From IMG/VR virus record IMGVR_UViG_3300042691_023046, positions 1-64,000 of that record: 64,000 nucleotides of DNA. The stretch is one strand, 5' to 3'. The stretch is from a virus. The stretch's first letter is position 1. Every line of letters begins with the position of its first letter. Shown here one piece after another: positions 12,750-52,244 of the stretch. A model generated the notes under the pieces. The model saw nothing but the letters and a program-made list of their open reading frames with translations, did not search any database and was not told the DNA's origin. The translations under genes and the position numbers were made by a program.

Positions 12750-13328
12750 TTATTTAATACTTAAACTAAATTTTTCATTTATTCTAGCACCTTCAATTAA
12801 CTCACCAGCTTGTAACAGCTCTTTAATTGGAGTTTTTAATACTTCTACTTTAGTTTCAAATACTTTTCCTGTAGCTTCTACTATTTTAGCTAATTCTTCA
12901 TAAGAAACTCTATCTTTAATAGTTAAAGATTTATATTTCTTATCAATAATTTCTTCATCAATTTCTACTGGTGTAGATTTAGTAGTACCTAATTTAAATG
13001 TACCTGCTGTACTTCTCCAAATATCTTTTTTAGGGTCTTTTTCACCAAATAATCTTAAACCACCTAATAAAGAATCTTTAAATCTTTTAATCATTAATTC
13101 TTTAGATGTTTTAACTTTATTTATTCTTTCCATTTCTGTATCACAAAATGCAACATCAGCTTCTAATGTTTTAATAATTTTACAAAATTGTTCTGATTTT
13201 GTAGCCCATTCTTCTGTTGTAAAATTTAATAAAGCATTTTGTTCATCTGTTAAAACACCTTCTTGACTTTCTGCTTCACTCATTAAATTTAAGTAAAGGT
13301 TTTCTATTTTATATAAACTACTATTCAT
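12750..13328 (-). CDS. Siphovirus Gp157 family protein
   Basis: SLY.I, coiled coil, C-terminal K..IKELLQAGELIEGARI...SLSIK. Confidence 0.85.
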   Translation of the reverse strand: MNSSLYKIENLYLNLMSEAESQEGVLTDEQNALLNFTTEEWATKSEQFCKIIKTLEADVAFCDTEMERINKVKTSKELMIKRFKDSLLGGLRLFGEKDPKKDIWRSTAGTFKLGTTKSTPVEIDEEIIDKKYKSLTIKDRVSYEELAKIVEATGKVFETKVEVLKTPIKELLQAGELIEGARINEKFSLSIK

Positions 13329-13966: not shown

Positions 13967-14383
13967 TTATATACTTAATTTAAATTTGATTCTACCTGTA
14001 TTTTGAGTTGTATATAATTTAGTTATAAAAGCTTTATAAATTTGACTATCATTATGTATAATTCCTAATTTTTCTAAACAATCAGTAATTGCTTTAGCTG
14101 TATTATCATAATCAGGTTTTTTCCTCATAGGAAAATTATCAATAAGATGTTTTTTTGGTGTTGAACTTGGATAAGGAAAATAAACAATTAATTCTAAAAT
14201 ACCAAAATCTTGAGGTAAAATATTATGTTTTTTCATTTCATATATCATACAATCTTGATAGGCTTTATATTTCGCTGGCATGTAAGCCCCAAATTTACCT
14301 AATCTTGGTCTTGGTGATGTTTGAGGTGTTAAATCTAATTCATACCAACCTTCATCATTTTCTTCTTTACTGTCTATTCCCAT
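13967..14383 (-). CDS. RusA-like Holliday junction resolvase
   Basis: PRPR, KKPDYDN..K...D and NDSQI motifs. Confidence 0.9.
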   Translation of the reverse strand: MGIDSKEENDEGWYELDLTPQTSPRPRLGKFGAYMPAKYKAYQDCMIYEMKKHNILPQDFGILELIVYFPYPSSTPKKHLIDNFPMRKKPDYDNTAKAITDCLEKLGIIHNDSQIYKAFITKLYTTQNTGRIKFKLSI

Positions 14384-14654: not shown

Positions 14655-14937
14655 TTCCTTTTTGTTTCATTGTGAATAACCAAGCGTTAAATGTTTTTTC
14701 TGCTTTTTTTTCTTCATTTTGTTTAAAAATAAAATATTCTTTATTAGTCATATTATTAGGTTTATATTTAAAAAAATTATTACTACAATAAAATACTTCT
14801 TGACTATCTTTTAAATCATTTATAAATATATTATTATTTTCTAATATAATTCTATATTCATCAGCTAATTGATAATTTTTATTATTTCTAGCTTCTTGTC
14901 TTTTATAGATTATTTCATCTAAGTTTAAATTACCCAT
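14644..14937 (-). CDS. Stand-alone CysRS C-terminal (anticodon-binding)-like domain
   Basis: RQEARNNKNYQLADEYRIILENNNIFIND matches the CysRS R..AR..K.W..AD.IR..L...GI...D motif. Confidence 0.7.
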   Translation of the reverse strand: MGNLNLDEIIYKRQEARNNKNYQLADEYRIILENNNIFINDLKDSQEVFYCSNNFFKYKPNNMTNKEYFIFKQNEEKKAEKTFNAWLFTMKQKGNGI

Positions 14938-15934
14938 ATATTAAATTGTGTGTTACTTCTATTGCTTTTTCATAATTAATTTCTTTTACTATATCTGATA
15001 TATCTTTAGGTAAATCTAAATCATGTACTATATAATCAACTCCTAAATCTTTTGATTGTTGTTTCATAGCTTCAATTCCAGCTTTATCATTATTGTACCA
15101 TAAAATTATATTTTTGTATTTAGTTTTAAGAAATTCTATTTTCTTTTTTGTTGGTTTAATTGTTTCACTCATTGTAGCTGCTACTTCAAAACCAAAAGTA
15201 TATTCTTTTTCTATTTTTCTTAAAACTTTTACATCTTTATAACTTGATTGTAAAATCAATAAATCTTGATTATATTGTAATTCATGTTCTCCTTGTAATA
15301 TTTCAGAATTATTATGTAAAAACTTTAACTCTCCTTTGTCTTTAGATGCAAAAGGAATATAGATTTTATAATTATAATCTCCAAAATGATACGCAAACAT
15401 AATTTTATCACTTTGAAACTTCATATCATTATACCAATAACATTTAATAGGATGAATATTAGCTAAATCATCTTTAGTAGTTAAATTAAATTGTTTCCAA
15501 AAATCATAATGTTTTTTAGTCCATTCTGTTCTTTTAATCTTTATATCTAATTTTGACTTTTCTTGTGTTAATTTGATTAACTGTTCTTTTGATAAAATGT
15601 ATTGATATTCAGTAAATTCATTACCATCTAAAAGAGAGAAATGTTTGGCTATAATTTGCAATACTTGATTAAAGTTACAATCTGGTGTAATTGATTGAAT
15701 TAAACCAAAACAATCATAACCTTTTGTTTGCGCCCAATCTCTAAACCATAATTTACCATCAGGAAATATTTTAATAGTACATGTAGGATTAGGGTCATTT
15801 CTTAATATATTACAAAACATTTTGTTTGTACCTATATAAGTATAGTCTATATTTAAATATTTACAAAATATATCTGCTTCTGTAATATTATCTAATATGA
15901 ATTTTTTATTGATTCTTTGGTCTATTGGTATCAT
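14930..15934 (-). CDS. DNA primase (crAss-type)
   Basis: LRND.NPTC...F.DW zinc-binding-like region, Toprim SYKDV...NNDKAG, PKDISD. Start placed at ATG 15934 because the track start lies inside a terminator. Confidence 0.8.
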   Translation of the reverse strand: MIPIDQRINKKFILDNITEADIFCKYLNIDYTYIGTNKMFCNILRNDPNPTCTIKIFPDGKLWFRDWAQTKGYDCFGLIQSITPDCNFNQVLQIIAKHFSLLDGNEFTEYQYILSKEQLIKLTQEKSKLDIKIKRTEWTKKHYDFWKQFNLTTKDDLANIHPIKCYWYNDMKFQSDKIMFAYHFGDYNYKIYIPFASKDKGELKFLHNNSEILQGEHELQYNQDLLILQSSYKDVKVLRKIEKEYTFGFEVAATMSETIKPTKKKIEFLKTKYKNIILWYNNDKAGIEAMKQQSKDLGVDYIVHDLDLPKDISDIVKEINYEKAIEVTHNLIYG

Positions 15935-15956
15935 ATTTTCAAATTTAAGTAAAAAC

Positions 15957-15989
15957 AAAAAAAGCATACTGTATTTAAACAGTATGCTT
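15957..15989 (-). terminator. Intrinsic terminator
   Basis: AAGCATACTG/CAGTATGCTT stem with T-run on the minus strand. Confidence 0.85.
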
Positions 15990-16003: not shown

Positions 16004-16852
16004 CTATAAATTTGAATTAAAATCTGATTGTATAGTTTCGTTGTCAGGAGTATCAATTTGTGTTGTAGGATTATAAACTCTAAGTTTTAAATCTTTATTG
16101 TATTCTGCTTTAAATTCACCATTATCTTCATTAAGTGCTTTAATAAAAGCATTTTTTGAATTTTTCATTGTAGCTCTTGTAAATTTCTTAGTATAAACAT
16201 TTTGATAGTATTTACCATTTTTTTCTTTTACACCTAATAAACAAGTTACTTCATTAGTTGCTACAGCTTTAACATAATTTCTTAATTCTGTAACATCACC
16301 TTTCATAATAGCTTCTCTATTTTTAAAACCTGCTTTTTCATCATAACCAATATATAAAAAAGCTTTAAAGAAATCTAATAAAGCAGCTTCTCCTACATAA
16401 GCTTGTACAATAGGTTCTTCTTTATAAAACCATTCCATTTTAGGATTGTTTGTGATAGTTTCTAAAGATTTACTATATGAAGCATTACCTAAACCATTAA
16501 TAAATTGTGAATTTCCTTTACTACTTAAACCAAAAGTAGGACTAACTAAAAATTCTAATTTAGCCGATACTTTTTTAGTACCTTTATTTAAATTATCTGT
16601 TTTAGTATCTAATTCTTCTACTAAACAATTATTTGATAAATAAATTACTATTTTATTTTGTATTTTATCATTACCTTCTTCATCTTTACCTAAAGAAATA
16701 CCTACATATTGAGGTTCTTTTTCTATACTTGAGCCTTGTAAAGCATTTAATTCTTCTAAAGTTGGATTGATTGCTACTATTCTTAAATCGGCTAATCCTG
16801 TAAAATTGGTTATTGTTGATTCTACAAATTCTTCTTGTTTTTTACCTTGCAT
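16004..16852 (-). CDS. Conserved crAss replication-module protein (possible ssDNA-binding)
   Basis: FTG...IVAINPT.EEL, A..GE..L..F, LLGV...YQ.VY. Lies next to primase and has an acidic tail. Confidence 0.55.
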   Translation of the reverse strand: MQGKKQEEFVESTITNFTGLADLRIVAINPTLEELNALQGSSIEKEPQYVGISLGKDEEGNDKIQNKIVIYLSNNCLVEELDTKTDNLNKGTKKVSAKLEFLVSPTFGLSSKGNSQFINGLGNASYSKSLETITNNPKMEWFYKEEPIVQAYVGEAALLDFFKAFLYIGYDEKAGFKNREAIMKGDVTELRNYVKAVATNEVTCLLGVKEKNGKYYQNVYTKKFTRATMKNSKNAFIKALNEDNGEFKAEYNKDLKLRVYNPTTQIDTPDNETIQSDFNSNL

Positions 16853-16938: not shown

Positions 16939-17613
16939 TTAAGCACTTTGATTATCTTCAAAGTTTGCTGTTACATCATTAGATTCTACTGGTCGATTTG
17001 TAGGTTCTACTACTGTATTAGCTTTTTTAGCTGCTAATGTAACTGCTCTTGCTGCCATAATAGCATCAATTCTTTCTTGAGGAATTTCTCTAGTTTTTTC
17101 TAAAACTGATGGAATTTCTGATGCTACTACTTTATAAGCTTTTATAATACCTTGTTCAATTTCTTCTTCTGTACGTTCAACTTCTACTAAATTTAAATGT
17201 TGACTGTAGCTATAACCTTCTACAAAACCTTTAATAGCAATAGTTCCATCTGCATTTTTTGGAGCAACTATTAATTCTGCTGCTAATAACACATTTGCTA
17301 AATTATCACTTTTATATGACCTTGATTTTTTGTTATTAGATTTACTAGTTAATTTAAATGCAGATGCTCTTTTATCTGTATGTGGTAATGTAGATACTTG
17401 TACAAAAGTTTCATCATCACTTAAACCAGTAAGGATAGCATTGTTATCTAAATTTAATTTTTTCCATGAACCGTTGAAAAAGAAATTTGTTAATACTTCT
17501 CCTTTACGAAAAATAGATTTTACTACTATATCTGATGATTCTGTAGTTGATGTGTTTACATTTGATAGTGATTGAACACCTAATTTTCCATTGTTACTTC
17601 CTAAAATTTTCAT
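16939..17613 (-). CDS. Hypothetical protein (own transcription unit)
   Basis: 224 aa ORF flanked by a promoter and a terminator. Confidence 0.75.
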   Translation of the reverse strand: MKILGSNNGKLGVQSLSNVNTSTTESSDIVVKSIFRKGEVLTNFFFNGSWKKLNLDNNAILTGLSDDETFVQVSTLPHTDKRASAFKLTSKSNNKKSRSYKSDNLANVLLAAELIVAPKNADGTIAIKGFVEGYSYSQHLNLVEVERTEEEIEQGIIKAYKVVASEIPSVLEKTREIPQERIDAIMAARAVTLAAKKANTVVEPTNRPVESNDVTANFEDNQSA

Positions 17614-17656: not shown

Positions 17657-17688
17657 CAAATGTAACTCTTTTTTGTATTCTTGTCAAG
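17657..17688 (-). promoter_or_regulatory. Bacteroidota sigma-type promoter
   Basis: TTG-N20-TACATTTG (-33/-7 consensus TTTG/TAnnTTTG). Confidence 0.7.
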
Positions 17689-17797
17689 TAATTTCTTTTA
17701 TATTTTTTGTTTTTTACTAAATATTTTTTATATGTATAGTTTTATAAACACTTTTGTACTTGCAAATACAAAAGAAAATTACTTATTTGAATTATTT

Positions 17798-18505
17798 TTA
17801 TTGTCCATTATAATCTTTTAATATAGCATCTACTATTAACTGTAGATTATTAGGTATATATTCAGTTTCAAACATTCCCATAGGACTTCTAGCAGTATCA
17901 TTCATTGATAAAGTTCTTAATTTATATCTTTCTGGGTCAGTAGCTTTTTTATCTTCATCTATATGAGTATAATAAGTATGTGATAAAGCACCTTCTATAT
18001 TATATTTGGTAGCCATTTTACCTAATACTTTTAATCTTTGTCTATCTGTACCTTTCGATTTATAATCTTCAATATGCCCCATCATAAAAATTATTAAAGG
18101 GTCTTTACTATTAGCGTGAATAGCAGCTATAGTTTTTTTACATTCTTTATACCCTGTTATAATTTTATAATTTTTCTTTTCTCTTGAATATTTTTGTCTA
18201 GCTCCTATAAATGTAAGCGGTTTTTTATCAATATTTAACCAATATGTTTCATCAGGATTAAGAAAACTTCCTCCTACTGTTTTACCACTACCTTCAAAAC
18301 CTAAAATAGCTACTGGAATAGTGTTTGGTAAAGATTTTATATAATTATATAAATCTAATAACTCTACTCCAAAATCTCTCCATTCATCATAAGTAGCACC
18401 TCTATTCTTTTTTTCCATTAAATCTAAATGTACATCAGATTGTAACTGATTAATAGTATCTATGATAGCTACTCTATATTTTTTTTCTACTACTATTTCT
18501 CCCAT
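17798..18505 (-). CDS. AAA_24/Sak4-like P-loop ATPase with permuted segments
   Basis: VAIID (Walker B, aa12-16) precedes GFEGSGKT (Walker A, aa69-76). Also GH.E, K.LGKM, IEG and ARSPMGMF. Confidence 0.85.
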   Translation of the reverse strand: MGEIVVEKKYRVAIIDTINQLQSDVHLDLMEKKNRGATYDEWRDFGVELLDLYNYIKSLPNTIPVAILGFEGSGKTVGGSFLNPDETYWLNIDKKPLTFIGARQKYSREKKNYKIITGYKECKKTIAAIHANSKDPLIIFMMGHIEDYKSKGTDRQRLKVLGKMATKYNIEGALSHTYYTHIDEDKKATDPERYKLRTLSMNDTARSPMGMFETEYIPNNLQLIVDAILKDYNGQ

Positions 18506-18723
18506 TTGTATTCTTTAAATGTTTTACTTGTTAAAATTAAATTACTTGGTATTTCTATTTCATATATACCTTCAAAGCATACATTATCTTTAAGTCTTTG
18601 AATTACAAGACTTCTTCTTTCTTTGTTTTTAAACGAATCTACTAATTCATTATCTACCATAATAAAAGTTTCATGTTCTCCTTTTAAAATAGCTTCTATT
18701 GTTTGATTTGTTAATGCTAACAT
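18493..18723 (-). CDS. Hypothetical protein
   Basis: ORF overlapping its neighbours. Confidence 0.55.
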   Translation of the reverse strand: MLALTNQTIEAILKGEHETFIMVDNELVDSFKNKERRSLVIQRLKDNVCFEGIYEIEIPSNLILTSKTFKEYKWEK

Positions 18724-19865
18724 TATTTTTTTGTTTTTGTTTTAATTAATTCTAAAAAAGGTTTACTAAAATCTTTTATTTTTTTATACCATTGAGGATT
18801 TTCATTAAATTCTTTTGCTATTGGTATTTCTTCAAAATAACCACATATACCTAAAAATCTAAATGCTAATTTAACTCCATCTCTACCTCCTCTATTTTTA
18901 ATTATAAAGCCCATTCTAAAATTATCAGTTATATCATAATCTATTCCTTTTAAAACATAATCTTGATAATTATCTAAATTATGTCTTTTAGGGTGCATTA
19001 ATGCTAATACAACATTAGCATCTTCTTGTGAATTACCTGTTTCTTTAAAATCAGTTAATTGTGGAGTAAGTTCTTTAAATTTTTGTCTTTGTATATCTCC
19101 CAACTCTCTATTAAATTGTGAAACTACTACAGGACTTATTTTATATTTATTTCTTAATTCTATTAAATAACTACAAAGTTTATCCATACTTAATTTTTTA
19201 TTTAATTTTATACCTTTTTCACTTTCAGATTTAATTAAAGAATAATGGTCAATTATAACTATTACATATTCATTAGGTTTATTAGGTTTATATGTTGGAA
19301 TTTTTTTTACTATACCTTCTACTTTTTTATCATATTCTGGCATTGTACCGTTATCAATACAATATTTTTCAACTTGTTTTTTAATACCTGTTGGATTTAA
19401 AGCTATATCTTCAAATTCTATATGTGAAAACAATTTTTCAAAATATTCTTCATAACTAGCAACTAAATTGTAATGTTCATCAGATAATCTATTTTCTACA
19501 TCATTATCATGTTGCATATCCATACCTACAATATGTTCTGGGTCTATCTCTATTTTATGGTCTTGAAATATTTGATATGATACCCATTTAGCTAATTTAG
19601 ATTCTAAATCTATTTCAAACGAATAATAAAAAATTTTTAAAGTTTCTTTTACATTATTTTCTGTAATATGTTTGTAAGGATTTAATATAAAAGCTTCATC
19701 AGCAAAACCTGTTTTACCACAACCTGTTTCTGCCCCAATTAAATAAAATTTCTTTTTTTGTATCCCTCTTAAATATTTATCTAATCTAGGAAAACCCATA
19801 GGTATTCCTTTATTTAAACCTTCTCTACCATCTCTCACATACTTTAAAAAATTTTGATACATCAT
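18723..19865 (-). CDS. DnaB-like replicative helicase
   Basis: GAETGCGKT, SFE, IIDH, SQFNR, DAN.V and KNR motifs. Confidence 0.9.
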   Translation of the reverse strand: MMYQNFLKYVRDGREGLNKGIPMGFPRLDKYLRGIQKKKFYLIGAETGCGKTGFADEAFILNPYKHITENNVKETLKIFYYSFEIDLESKLAKWVSYQIFQDHKIEIDPEHIVGMDMQHDNDVENRLSDEHYNLVASYEEYFEKLFSHIEFEDIALNPTGIKKQVEKYCIDNGTMPEYDKKVEGIVKKIPTYKPNKPNEYVIVIIDHYSLIKSESEKGIKLNKKLSMDKLCSYLIELRNKYKISPVVVSQFNRELGDIQRQKFKELTPQLTDFKETGNSQEDANVVLALMHPKRHNLDNYQDYVLKGIDYDITDNFRMGFIIKNRGGRDGVKLAFRFLGICGYFEEIPIAKEFNENPQWYKKIKDFSKPFLELIKTKTKK

Positions 19866-21159: not shown

Positions 21160-21366
21160 TTATTTTATATTATCTAATGGGTAAGATTCTTTGTGAAATT
21201 TTTCAACATCAAGTGTTTCTGAACCTTCATCACCTTTTAAAAAATAAGTATAATCTTCTGCTATATTCCTTTTACATTCTTCTACATGTAGTTTAGCAAA
21301 TTCAATTAACATATCTGTAGTATTATTAAAATTACCTTTATCTAAAAATTCTGCTGCTGTTATCAT
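21160..21366 (-). CDS. Hypothetical protein
   Basis: TAAEFL...MLIEFAKLHV...YPLDNIK, a small phage protein. Confidence 0.6.
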   Translation of the reverse strand: MITAAEFLDKGNFNNTTDMLIEFAKLHVEECKRNIAEDYTYFLKGDEGSETLDVEKFHKESYPLDNIK

Positions 21367-22550
21367 TTTATTTCTTCTATTGTTTTAATCCATTTTACGT
21401 TAAAAATCTTTTGTTGTCGTTTTTTTAACCATCCTATTTCTACAGTATTTTTTATAAATAAATTTATAAATATAGCTTCTTTACCTTTTACAAATCTAAT
21501 TGTACGACCTAAACTTTGCAGAGCATCTATTCCTGTTGAAGTATAAGCTGCTGCAATACCTACATCTACATTTTCTACATCTAAACCTTCATTTAAAGAT
21601 TTAACTGATACTAAATGCTGAACATCATTATTTACATAATCTTGTAAAATAGCTGCTTTTTCATGTTCATTTTTAATACCAGAATGATATACTTTTGAAC
21701 TTGGTAATATTTTTTGTACAGCATCAGCATATTTTTTAGTTTGACTAAATATTAAAGCCTTCTTTTCTTTTCCTAGATGGTCAAGAATTAATGGTATAAT
21801 ATCAACTTTTGCTTTAGCTCCATATACTATAGATTTTCTTGTAGTAGTAGCACCATTATGTCTAACAATTCTCATTTGTATATCTTTATAATTAAAATCA
21901 TTTTCTTCACAAAAGTTTTTTAAATACTGTTTGTCTTTTAAAGCTGTAAATGGATTTAATCCTTCTAAATATGGTGAATGAGCTTTTATTAAATTAGTTG
22001 CTTTATCATATTTCTCCTGTTCTTCTGGTGTAAATTCTAGTTCTAAATTGTAAACTTGAAAAGAAGAAACCCATCCTTTAGTTAGAGCTTCTTCTAATGT
22101 TACTTCTCCACAACAATAAATACCTTTAGCGTGTAAAAATGCTATTTTTTGTTTATCTAATGTAGCTGTTACTAAAAATCTATAATCACAAACAGTATTA
22201 TTTAATAAACTACTAAAATAAAACGCTGCTTCATTTGTAGCACGATGTACTTCATCTATTATTAATAAATCACATTTTTGTGGTGTTGCTACATAACTAT
22301 TAATTACAAATACTTTAGCGTTTAATACATTATTATCTATTAATAATTGATTCCATTGTGATTGTAATACTATTGTAGGTACTACTATATGTACTACTTT
22401 TTCTGGATTAAATCTTTTAATCGCTAATATACATAAATAAGATTTACCAAAACCTGTAACTGCTGTAATGTATCCATTTGCTTTAAATTTACTTATCCAT
22501 GTATCTATTATTTCATTTTGTCTTTTAAGTTTAGATTCATTAATTAACAT
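21363..22550 (-). CDS. Superfamily II DEXH helicase
   Basis: TGFGKS, DEVH, TAT, NEGLDV and QSLGRTIR motifs. Confidence 0.92.
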   Translation of the reverse strand: MLINESKLKRQNEIIDTWISKFKANGYITAVTGFGKSYLCILAIKRFNPEKVVHIVVPTIVLQSQWNQLLIDNNVLNAKVFVINSYVATPQKCDLLIIDEVHRATNEAAFYFSSLLNNTVCDYRFLVTATLDKQKIAFLHAKGIYCCGEVTLEEALTKGWVSSFQVYNLELEFTPEEQEKYDKATNLIKAHSPYLEGLNPFTALKDKQYLKNFCEENDFNYKDIQMRIVRHNGATTTRKSIVYGAKAKVDIIPLILDHLGKEKKALIFSQTKKYADAVQKILPSSKVYHSGIKNEHEKAAILQDYVNNDVQHLVSVKSLNEGLDVENVDVGIAAAYTSTGIDALQSLGRTIRFVKGKEAIFINLFIKNTVEIGWLKKRQQKIFNVKWIKTIEEIK

Positions 22551-50741: not shown

Positions 50742-52244
50742 ATGAACGGAAAAATAGCAAATGAACTAGTCTTAACACAAGACACTTATAAAGATAGTGC
50801 TTATTCAAGCATTACTGAATTAAGTAAAGCTTTACAGACTGATGCAGAATGGTTATCACCTATAGTAACTTTTTTATCTTATACAGATACTAAATACTAT
50901 ATGAAGAAAAACTACCCTTTTTTATACCAAACAGAAGGTAATAAAAATGTAGAAAGTTTAACTAAATTAGGTAATGCTAATTTTGAATACAAATATCCTA
51001 TTATAGGTAGATTAAAAACTACTAACCAAGTAGCAGTTACTTCTTTTTCATCTACAGACCAAGTAGGTAAAAATGGTATGCCTTTCCAAATGATATTTGC
51101 AGATAGACAGTTTTCAATAGGACAAACAGTTTATCCTTATGGTGTAAGTTCTAAATTACAATGTAGAGTATTAGTAGCACCAGAAAAAGTAAGTAATGGA
51201 TATAAATATACATTTAAAATATTTAATTCAAGTCCTACTTTGTTTTTACCTTTTCAAAGTTTAATAGCAGGAGCAGTTTGGAGTGCAGGTTTAAGAAAAG
51301 TTGCATTTGAAGGTTCAAAAGGAGGAGAATCACGTTCTCAATTACCTAGTACAGCAACTAATATGGTAACTTTAACTCGTAATACTTACAAGTTTAAAGG
51401 TAACGTAGATAAAAAAGTAATGAAATTTTCTATTCCTATAGATGGACAGAAATTTACTACTTATATGGATTGGGAATTGTTTTTAAGTAAAATTTATTTT
51501 AAAGAAGAACAAGAAGAAGATTTATTATGGTCGCAATATGGTAAAACTGCTAGTGGAGATTTCTCTAACTATGATGATGATGCTCCTATTACATCAGGAG
51601 CAGGTATTGAGCAGCAAATTCCTAGTAGTAATTCAGATACTTATAGTTTTTTAACTTTAAATAAGTGGAAAAATATTGTACGTGAGGTAACTTATGGTAT
51701 TAATGATGATATTACAGATTTACATGTTTACACAGGTAGAGGTGGTATGGAAGAATTTGATAATGCAGTTAAATCTGGATTTGTTAATTTCTTATCTAGT
51801 TCTAATGTATTAGCTAATAGTGATAAATTTATACAAGGTGCAAATTCTTGGGATATGACATTTGGTTCATATTTTAATAAATATCGTGTAGTTGATGGAC
51901 AAGTAATAACAGTACATTATCACCCATTATTAGATTTTGGTCGTAGAGCAAAAGCAGCAGTTAAGCATCCTGTTACTGGTTTTCCAATGACATCACATAA
52001 TTTCTACTTTATAGACCAATCACAAGTTGATGGTAAACCAAACTTACAATATGTAAGTGAAGATGGTAGAGAAAAAATGAAGATTGTACAAGGTATGACA
52101 GGTATGCCAGTAGGATTTACAGATAGTGTAAATGTTTCAACAGATAAAGATGAAACATCTATAGAATGGATGAAATCACATGGTATTTTAATTCGCAGAC
52201 CTTCTAGTTGTTTCAAATTAGAATGTACATTAAGCGGATTTTAG
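50742..52244 (+). CDS. Major capsid protein (crAss-type HK97 fold)
   Basis: 500 aa, with G.GI..QI, VYTG.GG..EFD, FG.YF..Y...DG..ITV.YHPL.D. Position fits. Confidence 0.9.
   Translation: MNGKIANELVLTQDTYKDSAYSSITELSKALQTDAEWLSPIVTFLSYTDTKYYMKKNYPFLYQTEGNKNVESLTKLGNANFEYKYPIIGRLKTTNQVAVTSFSSTDQVGKNGMPFQMIFADRQFSIGQTVYPYGVSSKLQCRVLVAPEKVSNGYKYTFKIFNSSPTLFLPFQSLIAGAVWSAGLRKVAFEGSKGGESRSQLPSTATNMVTLTRNTYKFKGNVDKKVMKFSIPIDGQKFTTYMDWELFLSKIYFKEEQEEDLLWSQYGKTASGDFSNYDDDAPITSGAGIEQQIPSSNSDTYSFLTLNKWKNIVREVTYGINDDITDLHVYTGRGGMEEFDNAVKSGFVNFLSSSNVLANSDKFIQGANSWDMTFGSYFNKYRVVDGQVITVHYHPLLDFGRRAKAAVKHPVTGFPMTSHNFYFIDQSQVDGKPNLQYVSEDGREKMKIVQGMTGMPVGFTDSVNVSTDKDETSIEWMKSHGILIRRPSSCFKLECTLSGF

Follow-up and report, generated by a model that had tools for sequence, protein, structure and literature searches.

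The gene considered here lies on the minus strand at positions 17798-18505 of a virus-derived stretch of 64,000 nucleotides, the window, which is the whole piece of DNA analysed from the record IMGVR_UViG_3300042691_023046. It is an uninterrupted open reading frame (ORF) of 235 codons plus a stop codon, encoding a protein of 235 amino acids (ORF list and translation). With 79 homologs and a match to PHROG 2872, it can be described as a segment-swapped Sak4-like ATPase with a RecA core. In the standard Sak4 chain the Walker A segment (called A here) is followed by the Walker B segment (B) and then by a segment with a conserved histidine strand (C), while the order in the window protein is B-A-C. 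We will show that this permutation of the sequence is genuine, which we regard as nearly certain, and we consider it probable that its product, in a crAss-like phage, is a 'core-only' P-loop ATPase of the Sak4 type, related to RecA and Rad51, in which one module of about 55 residues has been moved.

The three segments, all on the minus strand, are arranged as follows. Segment B comes first (aa 1-61, positions 18323-18505) and consists of the Walker B strand and two helices, as delimited by hhalign, by the AAA_24 profile and by the predicted structure. Residues 10-58 contain a hydrophobic strand, V12-A-I-I-D16-T17, and a helix with the motif Y39-D-E-W42. The strand with its aspartate (aa 10-17, 18455-18478), identified by conservation and by alignment to D81/T82 of the canonical proteins, is a Walker B motif in the usual sense, a hydrophobic strand ending in Asp (V-A-I-I-D16-T), but located at the N-terminus.

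Segment A follows (aa 62-136, 18098-18322; hhalign and model), with strand 1, the P-loop, a helix, strand 2 and a connecting helix. Its Walker A motif G69-F-E-G-S-G-K75-T76 (18278-18301) fits the pattern GxxGxGK[ST], its conserved form being G69-x-x-G-x-G74-K75-T76, and strand 2 ends with N91-x-D93-x-K95 (18221-18235), the counterpart of the canonical N31-x-D33-x-K35. Segment C, finally, comprises aa 137-235 (17801-18097; hhalign), beginning with strand 4, which ends with the histidine motif G143-H144-x-E146, and continuing with the C-terminal half. The original prediction, made from the sequence alone, had placed the motifs at aa 12-60, at aa 62-136 and in the H.E part thereafter, each segment occurring once in a clean frame. 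The motifs are indeed found there in the translation, the reading frame is unbroken, and the profiles place B, A and C once each.

Segment order and homology

Against sequence databases, the window protein matches PHROG 2872, 'Sak4-like ssDNA annealing protein' (ssDNA, single-stranded DNA), in three stretches with an E value of 4.9e-30. The Pfam family AAA_24 (PF13479) matches only aa 7-63, to positions 62-124 of the 195 in the profile (E 0.005), and of 27 aligned relatives 16 reach E <= 0.01, with 1.2e-6 as the lowest value. When aa 62-136, 137-235 and 62-235 were scanned alone, each as a single sequence, no Pfam family came up at E <= 10, and a comparison of profiles with profiles was therefore needed.

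Two alignments were used for this purpose, one of the 27 relatives of the window protein and one of 24 canonical relatives of the type found in Cellulophaga phage phi14:2. The phi14:2 protein g034 (YP_008242258.1, 224 aa) contains, in this order, the P-loop strand, the N-x-D-x-K strand, the hydrophobic D-T strand with its helices and the histidine strand, which is the canonical order that the prediction had started from. The first alignment was cut at the two junctions proposed there, and each segment profile was run against the second alignment with hhalign. Segment B (aa 6-58) aligns with canonical positions 71-122 (probability 93.3%, E 2.8e-7), segment A (aa 63-133) with positions 3-73 (98.9%, E 1.1e-17), and segment C (aa 137-233) with positions 128-224 (99.2%, E 6e-20). 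Segments A and C taken together reach an E value of 1.8e-32, with the canonical B block skipped. Separate segments were expected to match out of order, and they do so; the mapping is therefore non-colinear.

The correspondence extends to individual residues. D16, T17 and W42 align with D81, T82 and W106 of the canonical alignment, of which the first two are invariant and the third nearly so; at the end of strand 2, that alignment has the invariants N31, D33 and K35. In the opposite direction, a hidden Markov model (HMM) of the N-terminal segment matches canonical proteins at about residues 72-126, with E values down to 2e-13. A plain BLASTP comparison of the window protein with phi14:2 g034 aligns residues 65-233 with 5-224 (E 5e-20, 27% identity) and opens 55 gapped columns, mostly at the canonical Walker B block. 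Judged from these alignments, the resemblance of the motifs to those of canonical Sak4/AAA_24 proteins is not due to chance.

It should be stressed that the observed order is B-A-C and not B-C-A, which means that the whole chain has not been permuted circularly. A single cut of a closed chain would give B-C-A or C-A-B, whereas here segment C is still C-terminal and only A and B have been exchanged, just as had been predicted. The homology to bona fide Sak4/AAA_24 members covers the whole chain, according to the segment alignments, the PHROG match and the tree described below, but the standard succession of Walker A, Walker B and histidine strand is not present. Because of this chain order, we classify the window protein, on its aligned sequence, as a non-standard member belonging by descent to a derived, permuted Sak4/AAA_24 subfamily.

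The order is shared by many other proteins. A first homology search yielded 79 proteins, nearly all full-length; most measure 214-275 aa and match at least 94% of the query, and several are encoded on contigs of 85-92 kb. All 27 aligned relatives start a few residues ahead of the Walker B strand. When order classes were assigned with six segment HMMs, 186 of the 346 proteins compared were A-B-C, 113 were B-A-C, 39 were A-C and 8 were others; homologs with the same order, which the prediction had called for, are thus abundant. They include gp58 of Flavobacterium phage FpV4 (YP_009594114.1), a cultured phage with a complete genome. In none of the 346 proteins were two copies of any segment detected (domain E <= 0.1).

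A wider profile search against 1.84 billion cluster representatives gave 1602 matches at E <= 0.001, with 758 at E <= 1e-10 and 49 at E <= 1e-30. The best 150 of these 1602 representatives at 50% identity comprise 41 B-A-C, 68 A-B-C and 34 A-C proteins, the remaining seven being 3 BA, 2 C only, 1 BC and 1 AB. The permuted clade thus contains at least 41 clusters at 50% identity. Among the 34 A-C rows, 7 are short fragments, and in the other 27 the stretch from A to C is long enough to hold a B that escaped detection. Two B-A-C representatives, P0240 (275 aa) and P0278 (298 aa), carry 85-100 extra residues between segments A and C; these inserts are not B-like and match no segment HMM.

The positions expected to be catalytic are strongly conserved over the 113 B-A-C proteins. 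In the P-loop, G69, G74 and K75 are each kept in 113/113, and position 76 is T or S in all of them. D93 is likewise invariant (113/113), as are G162 and N219, while K95 and H144 are kept in 112/113 each and R206 in 111/113. In the moved block, D16 is kept in 108 proteins (the other five are four gaps and one Cys), T17 in 104 and W42 in 109. On these counts, the B block is under the same constraint as the P-loop.

Predicted structures and the proposed core

Structures were predicted with AlphaFold2 on each of the two alignments. The permuted model has a predicted local distance difference test score (pLDDT) of 90.3 and a predicted template modelling score (pTM) of 0.89, and the canonical one 90.9 and 0.90, respectively. 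In the permuted model, the first module consists of strand 10-16 and helices 18-33 and 39-58. It is followed by a module with strand 62-69, helix 75-81, strand 87-91, helix 102-105, strand 113-115 and helix 119-131, and then by the third module, from strand 133-150 onward. The canonical model begins with strands 3-8 and 27-31, helix 42-45, strand 53-55 and helix 59-70, continues with strand 77-81 and helices 83-92, 94-97 and 102-123, and proceeds from strand 129-134 onward. The predicted secondary-structure modules are thus the same, with their order swapped. Residues 10-16 of the permuted model are assigned as strand by DSSP, which requires pairing with another strand, and the pLDDT over residues 11-20 is 96.

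The models were compared with known structures by means of VIA-align and Foldseek. For the canonical model, VIA-align matches 8RC5, the Sak4 of Staphylococcus aureus phage 52A, over residues 1-223 with Z 17.2 and 189 aligned residues. For the permuted model the same structure gives Z 9.0, a root-mean-square deviation of 3.3 Å and 141 aligned residues, with model residues 60-231 placed on 8RC5 26-258. The 48 residues lost between 189 and 141 amount to the B module and nothing beyond it. Chains with Z >= 8 number 60 for the canonical model and one for the permuted model. Residues 61-219 of the latter also match RecA (3CMU, Z 7.7), and nearly all of its rows to the RecA family begin at residue 60 or 61, the N-terminal module being unplaceable by sequential aligners.

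In Foldseek, the canonical model has at least 500 PDB matches at E <= 0.001, the best at 1.2e-7 and 8RC5 at 7e-7, with template modelling (TM) scores by query of about 0.5 (0.39-0.56). The best E value for the permuted model is 4.9e-3, and the TM scores by query are 0.18-0.39 in the first 15 rows. Read together with the canonical control, these weak rows are not taken as evidence for a new fold.

As a separate observation, VIA-align matches the permuted model over its full length (8-235) only to three-layer proteins of the Rossmann-like kind, among them CoaBC (5INT_B, Z 6.3) and GT-B glycosyltransferases (Z 4.6-5.4). It would seem from this that a sequential aligner sees the predicted connectivity as Rossmann-like.

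We now turn to how the chain could be wired. In the RecA/ASCE sheet the strand order is 5-1-4-3-2, and strand 3, which carries Walker B, is normally followed in the chain by strand 4, located between strands 3 and 1. In the arrangement we propose, a module of about 55 residues, the Walker B strand with the two following helices, would have been moved from between the strand-2 region and the histidine strand to the N-terminus. The end of the B module would then need to reach strand 1 rather than its neighbour strand 4, and the end of the A module would need to reach strand 4 rather than its neighbour strand 3. Since each new connection would go one strand further in the same direction, the connecting helices could remain on the side of the sheet where they normally lie.

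New wiring could in this way lead back to an unchanged core in three dimensions, with its ATP site formed by K75/T76, D16, D93 and H144. An argument based on a shift by one strand had already been put forward in the prediction, and it agrees with the established sheet order and with the matching modules of the two models. We infer that the moved module probably sits in its canonical place in space, with D16 near the P-loop. We hold with good confidence that the permuted chain rebuilds the canonical fold together with its ATP site.

Origin of the permutation

A tree was calculated without the moved block, on the columns of segments A and C alone. After removal of 15 short representatives it contained 138 rows, 43 of them B-A-C and 95 labelled A-B-C (IQ-TREE quick search, LG+C20). 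The order label changes once on this tree, the B-A-C proteins being one side of a branch with a Shimodaira-Hasegawa-like approximate likelihood ratio (SH-aLRT) support of 99. When the tree is rooted, for drawing, on phi14:2, the sister of the permuted clade is a canonical group of four proteins. FastTree on the A+C columns also gives one order change. A single origin of B-A-C is thus the most likely reading of these alignments, although the shorter data sets do not show it (see below).

To our knowledge, all other RecA-superfamily proteins have the canonical order, and for this reason it is taken as ancestral. A plausible route, given here as a proposal only, would be a tandem duplication of the A-B part to yield A-B-A-B-C, from which the first A and the second B would then have been lost.

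Alternative explanations

Taken together, we find it likely that one ancient event led to the strand succession 3-1-2-4-5, that the fold and the ATP site were kept, and that the protein has persisted as an active recombinase in a clade of crAss-like phages. Several observations weigh against this reading. The AAA_24 score of the window protein is 17.1 bits, under the gathering cut-off of 27 bits; a colinear model cannot score the swapped segments jointly. FastTree on segment A alone or on segment C alone needs two order changes each. The B-A-B-C intermediate is absent among the 346 proteins (domain E <= 0.1), which leaves the duplication route without direct support. Pfam and PHROG scans of the neighbouring genes did not identify a gene for a single-stranded DNA-binding protein (SSB) beside the Sak4-like gene. 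With the permuted model as query, Foldseek gives nothing in the PDB at E <= 0.001. Finally, a Sak4 protein mutated in Walker A is reported to have retained in vivo recombination activity (Lopes et al. 2010, PMC2896510), and on that account ATPase activity may not be essential to the function of the family.

The last two points bear on the alternative that survives best, namely that the sequence is truly permuted but the fold has changed or the ATP site is dead, the protein perhaps being an ATP-independent annealing or scaffolding protein. A weak Foldseek result is expected for a non-sequential fold, yet it would also fit a partly different one, and the Walker A mutant of a Sak4 protein kept its in vivo activity. 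However, D16, T17 and W42 show the same degree of conservation as D81, T82 and W106 in the canonical proteins, and the P-loop lysine, D93 and H144 are kept in at least 112 of the 113 proteins. The model is compact, with the N-terminal strand confidently predicted, and the alignment to 8RC5 loses only as many residues as the B module contains. On balance we consider a changed fold or a dead site unlikely, and prefer the rebuilt canonical core.

Another option is a colinear reading, in which the Walker B block is followed by a normal histidine strand and GFEGSGKT is a chance P-loop-like sequence, so that the protein would be a partial tandem duplication without a true P-loop segment. This is what phmmer proposes: its sole match among PDB sequences is the phage 52A Sak4 (8RC5, E 1.9e-5), with aa 8-87 aligned colinearly to residues 117-200 and VAILGFEG placed over LAISGHEG. 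The profile of segment A, on the other hand, matches the canonical N-terminus at E 1.1e-17, and BLASTP aligns the same region with the start of phi14:2 g034. The P-loop residues G69, G74, K75 and T/S76 are invariant in the 113 proteins, a separate histidine strand with G143-H144-x-E146 is found at the expected place, and the structural match to 8RC5 begins at the P-loop strand. We therefore judge the colinear reading very improbable, and retain the permuted order.

The reality of the DNA was examined at the two junctions of the gene, near 18322 (B/A) and 18097 (A/C), using Logan contigs (assemblies, not raw reads) from three runs of other samples or studies. Record 1 of run X2 bridges both junctions (17660-18448) and so does record 6 of run X4 (17968-18610), in both cases with no difference, while in run X6 two records cover them, one at 17939-18307 and the other at 18288-18716. 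For the contigs of the three runs, no joint across the gene was reported, and the misassembly that the prediction had named as its refutation is not seen. Since contigs from three other samples bridge both junctions, B-A-C is not an assembly artefact. A misjoined or chimeric contig hiding a canonical gene, conceivable for a metagenome-derived virus record checked against contigs and not raw reads, is hardly credible given these bridging contigs, the same order in 79 homologs from many assemblies (mostly at >= 94% of the query) and the same order in the complete genome of the cultured phage FpV4.

DNA nearly identical to the window was also encountered in runs labelled as fungus, freshwater and aquatic metagenomes.

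Genomic context and function

The full virus record from which the window is taken runs to 83,728 bases, carries direct terminal repeats and is estimated to be 100% complete; the window is thus part of the complete genome of a crAss-like phage. On the plus strand, positions 50742-52244 encode a Crass-type major capsid protein (PF23898, E 5.5e-56). No second AAA_24 match was found in the 83,728-base genome.

The neighbouring genes are all on the minus strand. They include a DnaB-like helicase at 18723-19865 and a second helicase at 21363-22550, as well as a Toprim primase at 14930-15967, a RusA-like resolvase at 13967-14383 and a Gam-like end-protection protein at 12750-13328. Together with the Sak4-like gene, these form one replication and recombination module.

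For the ORFs at 16939-17613 and 16004-16852, scans of Pfam (E <= 0.01) and of PHROG (E <= 0.001) gave no match. The second of these encodes 282 aa on the minus strand, two genes downstream of the Sak4-like gene, and an Atlas search with it gave a lead to DUF669 (score 0.89, TM 0.38/0.57). As a lead only, this ORF could be an SSB-like partner, of the kind commonly located close to Sak4 genes. The 224-aa neighbour returned chance-level Atlas rows only.

According to the respective papers, the Sak4 of HK620 is an ssDNA-binding protein that performs ATP-dependent annealing of ssDNA, with stimulation by its SSB (PMC5928155), and that of phage 52A forms Rad51-like filaments (PMC11846896). By analogy with these studied Sak4 proteins, the role of the window protein would be annealing and recombination in support of replication.

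Significance

A literature search outside supplements and subscription journals turned up no paper on a Sak4 with permuted order, nor on any RecA-like ATPase in which Walker B comes before Walker A. The family assignment as such is already known, since FpV4 gp58 is named 'Sak4-like ssDNA annealing protein' in RefSeq; what is new, as far as this search shows, is the permutation. AAA_24 is annotated in 7 of the 79 permuted relatives, compared to 106 of 120 canonical phi14:2 relatives among the matches listed, and where the source names the permuted relatives it is almost always as 'hypothetical protein'. Owing to the permutation, colinear profile models overlook the family, and most members are labelled in that way as a result. 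Because such models miss the permuted family, surveys of recombinases in crAss-like phages will undercount its members.

Non-circular natural permutations are rare. The permuted and unpermuted forms discussed here are about 27-30% identical, occur in the same kind of phage and both have confident models, and such a close pair makes a clean natural case for questions of chain order. If our reading is true, a natural non-circular permutation of the P-loop core with close unpermuted relatives would be a ready-made experiment on chain order. One question it opens is whether a P-loop/RecA core can fold and hydrolyse ATP with the Walker B strand made first. Others are how such a rearrangement arises and how far chain order constrains an ancient fold.

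Comparison with known systems

The closest canonical counterpart is phi14:2 g034, which has the three homologous segments and the same conserved positions in a chain of similar length (224 aa vs 235). Its phage also resembles the window phage in having a Crass capsid and a Sak4-like gene in a replication module beside a primase. The difference is in the order, A-B-C in g034 and B-A-C in the window protein.

FpV4 gp58 has the B-A-C order and is 33% identical to the window protein in a colinear alignment over aa 7-233, and FpV4 also has a Crass-type capsid. It is, however, a distant member of the permuted clade, and its annotation is silent on the permutation. Being cultured, FpV4 is a practical system for experiments.

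In Flavobacterium phage Fpv1 (NC_031914.1), the gene for the permuted Sak4 carries an insertion after codon 36, within the Walker B block. The insertion measures 826 bp (L002 669-1494) and contains a 195-aa ORF at 888-1475 that is GIY-YIG-like by eye. Its flanks encode aa 1-36 and 37-226, 100% identical to FpV4 gp58. No intron family was detected at this locus in Rfam at E <= 0.01. The insertion may be an unrecognised intron, or the gene may be split or disabled. In addition, 22 phage records (H8-H29) match only from aa 50.

The Sak4 of phage 52A (8RC5), a RecA/Rad51-like core-only ATPase, is the best structural match of the permuted model. It aligns with the canonical crAss model over the whole length, and with the permuted model only from residue 60. 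Both this protein and the HK620 Sak4 have the canonical order, unlike the window protein.

The circularly permuted GTPases (cpGTPases), such as YlqF/YjeQ, are P-loop proteins whose chain looks as if its ends had been joined and the chain opened elsewhere. They share with the window protein a non-standard order of the nucleotide-binding motifs along a P-loop chain. The window protein differs from them in that, of its three segments, the first two have changed places and the third has not, and no single cut of a circle gives B-A-C.

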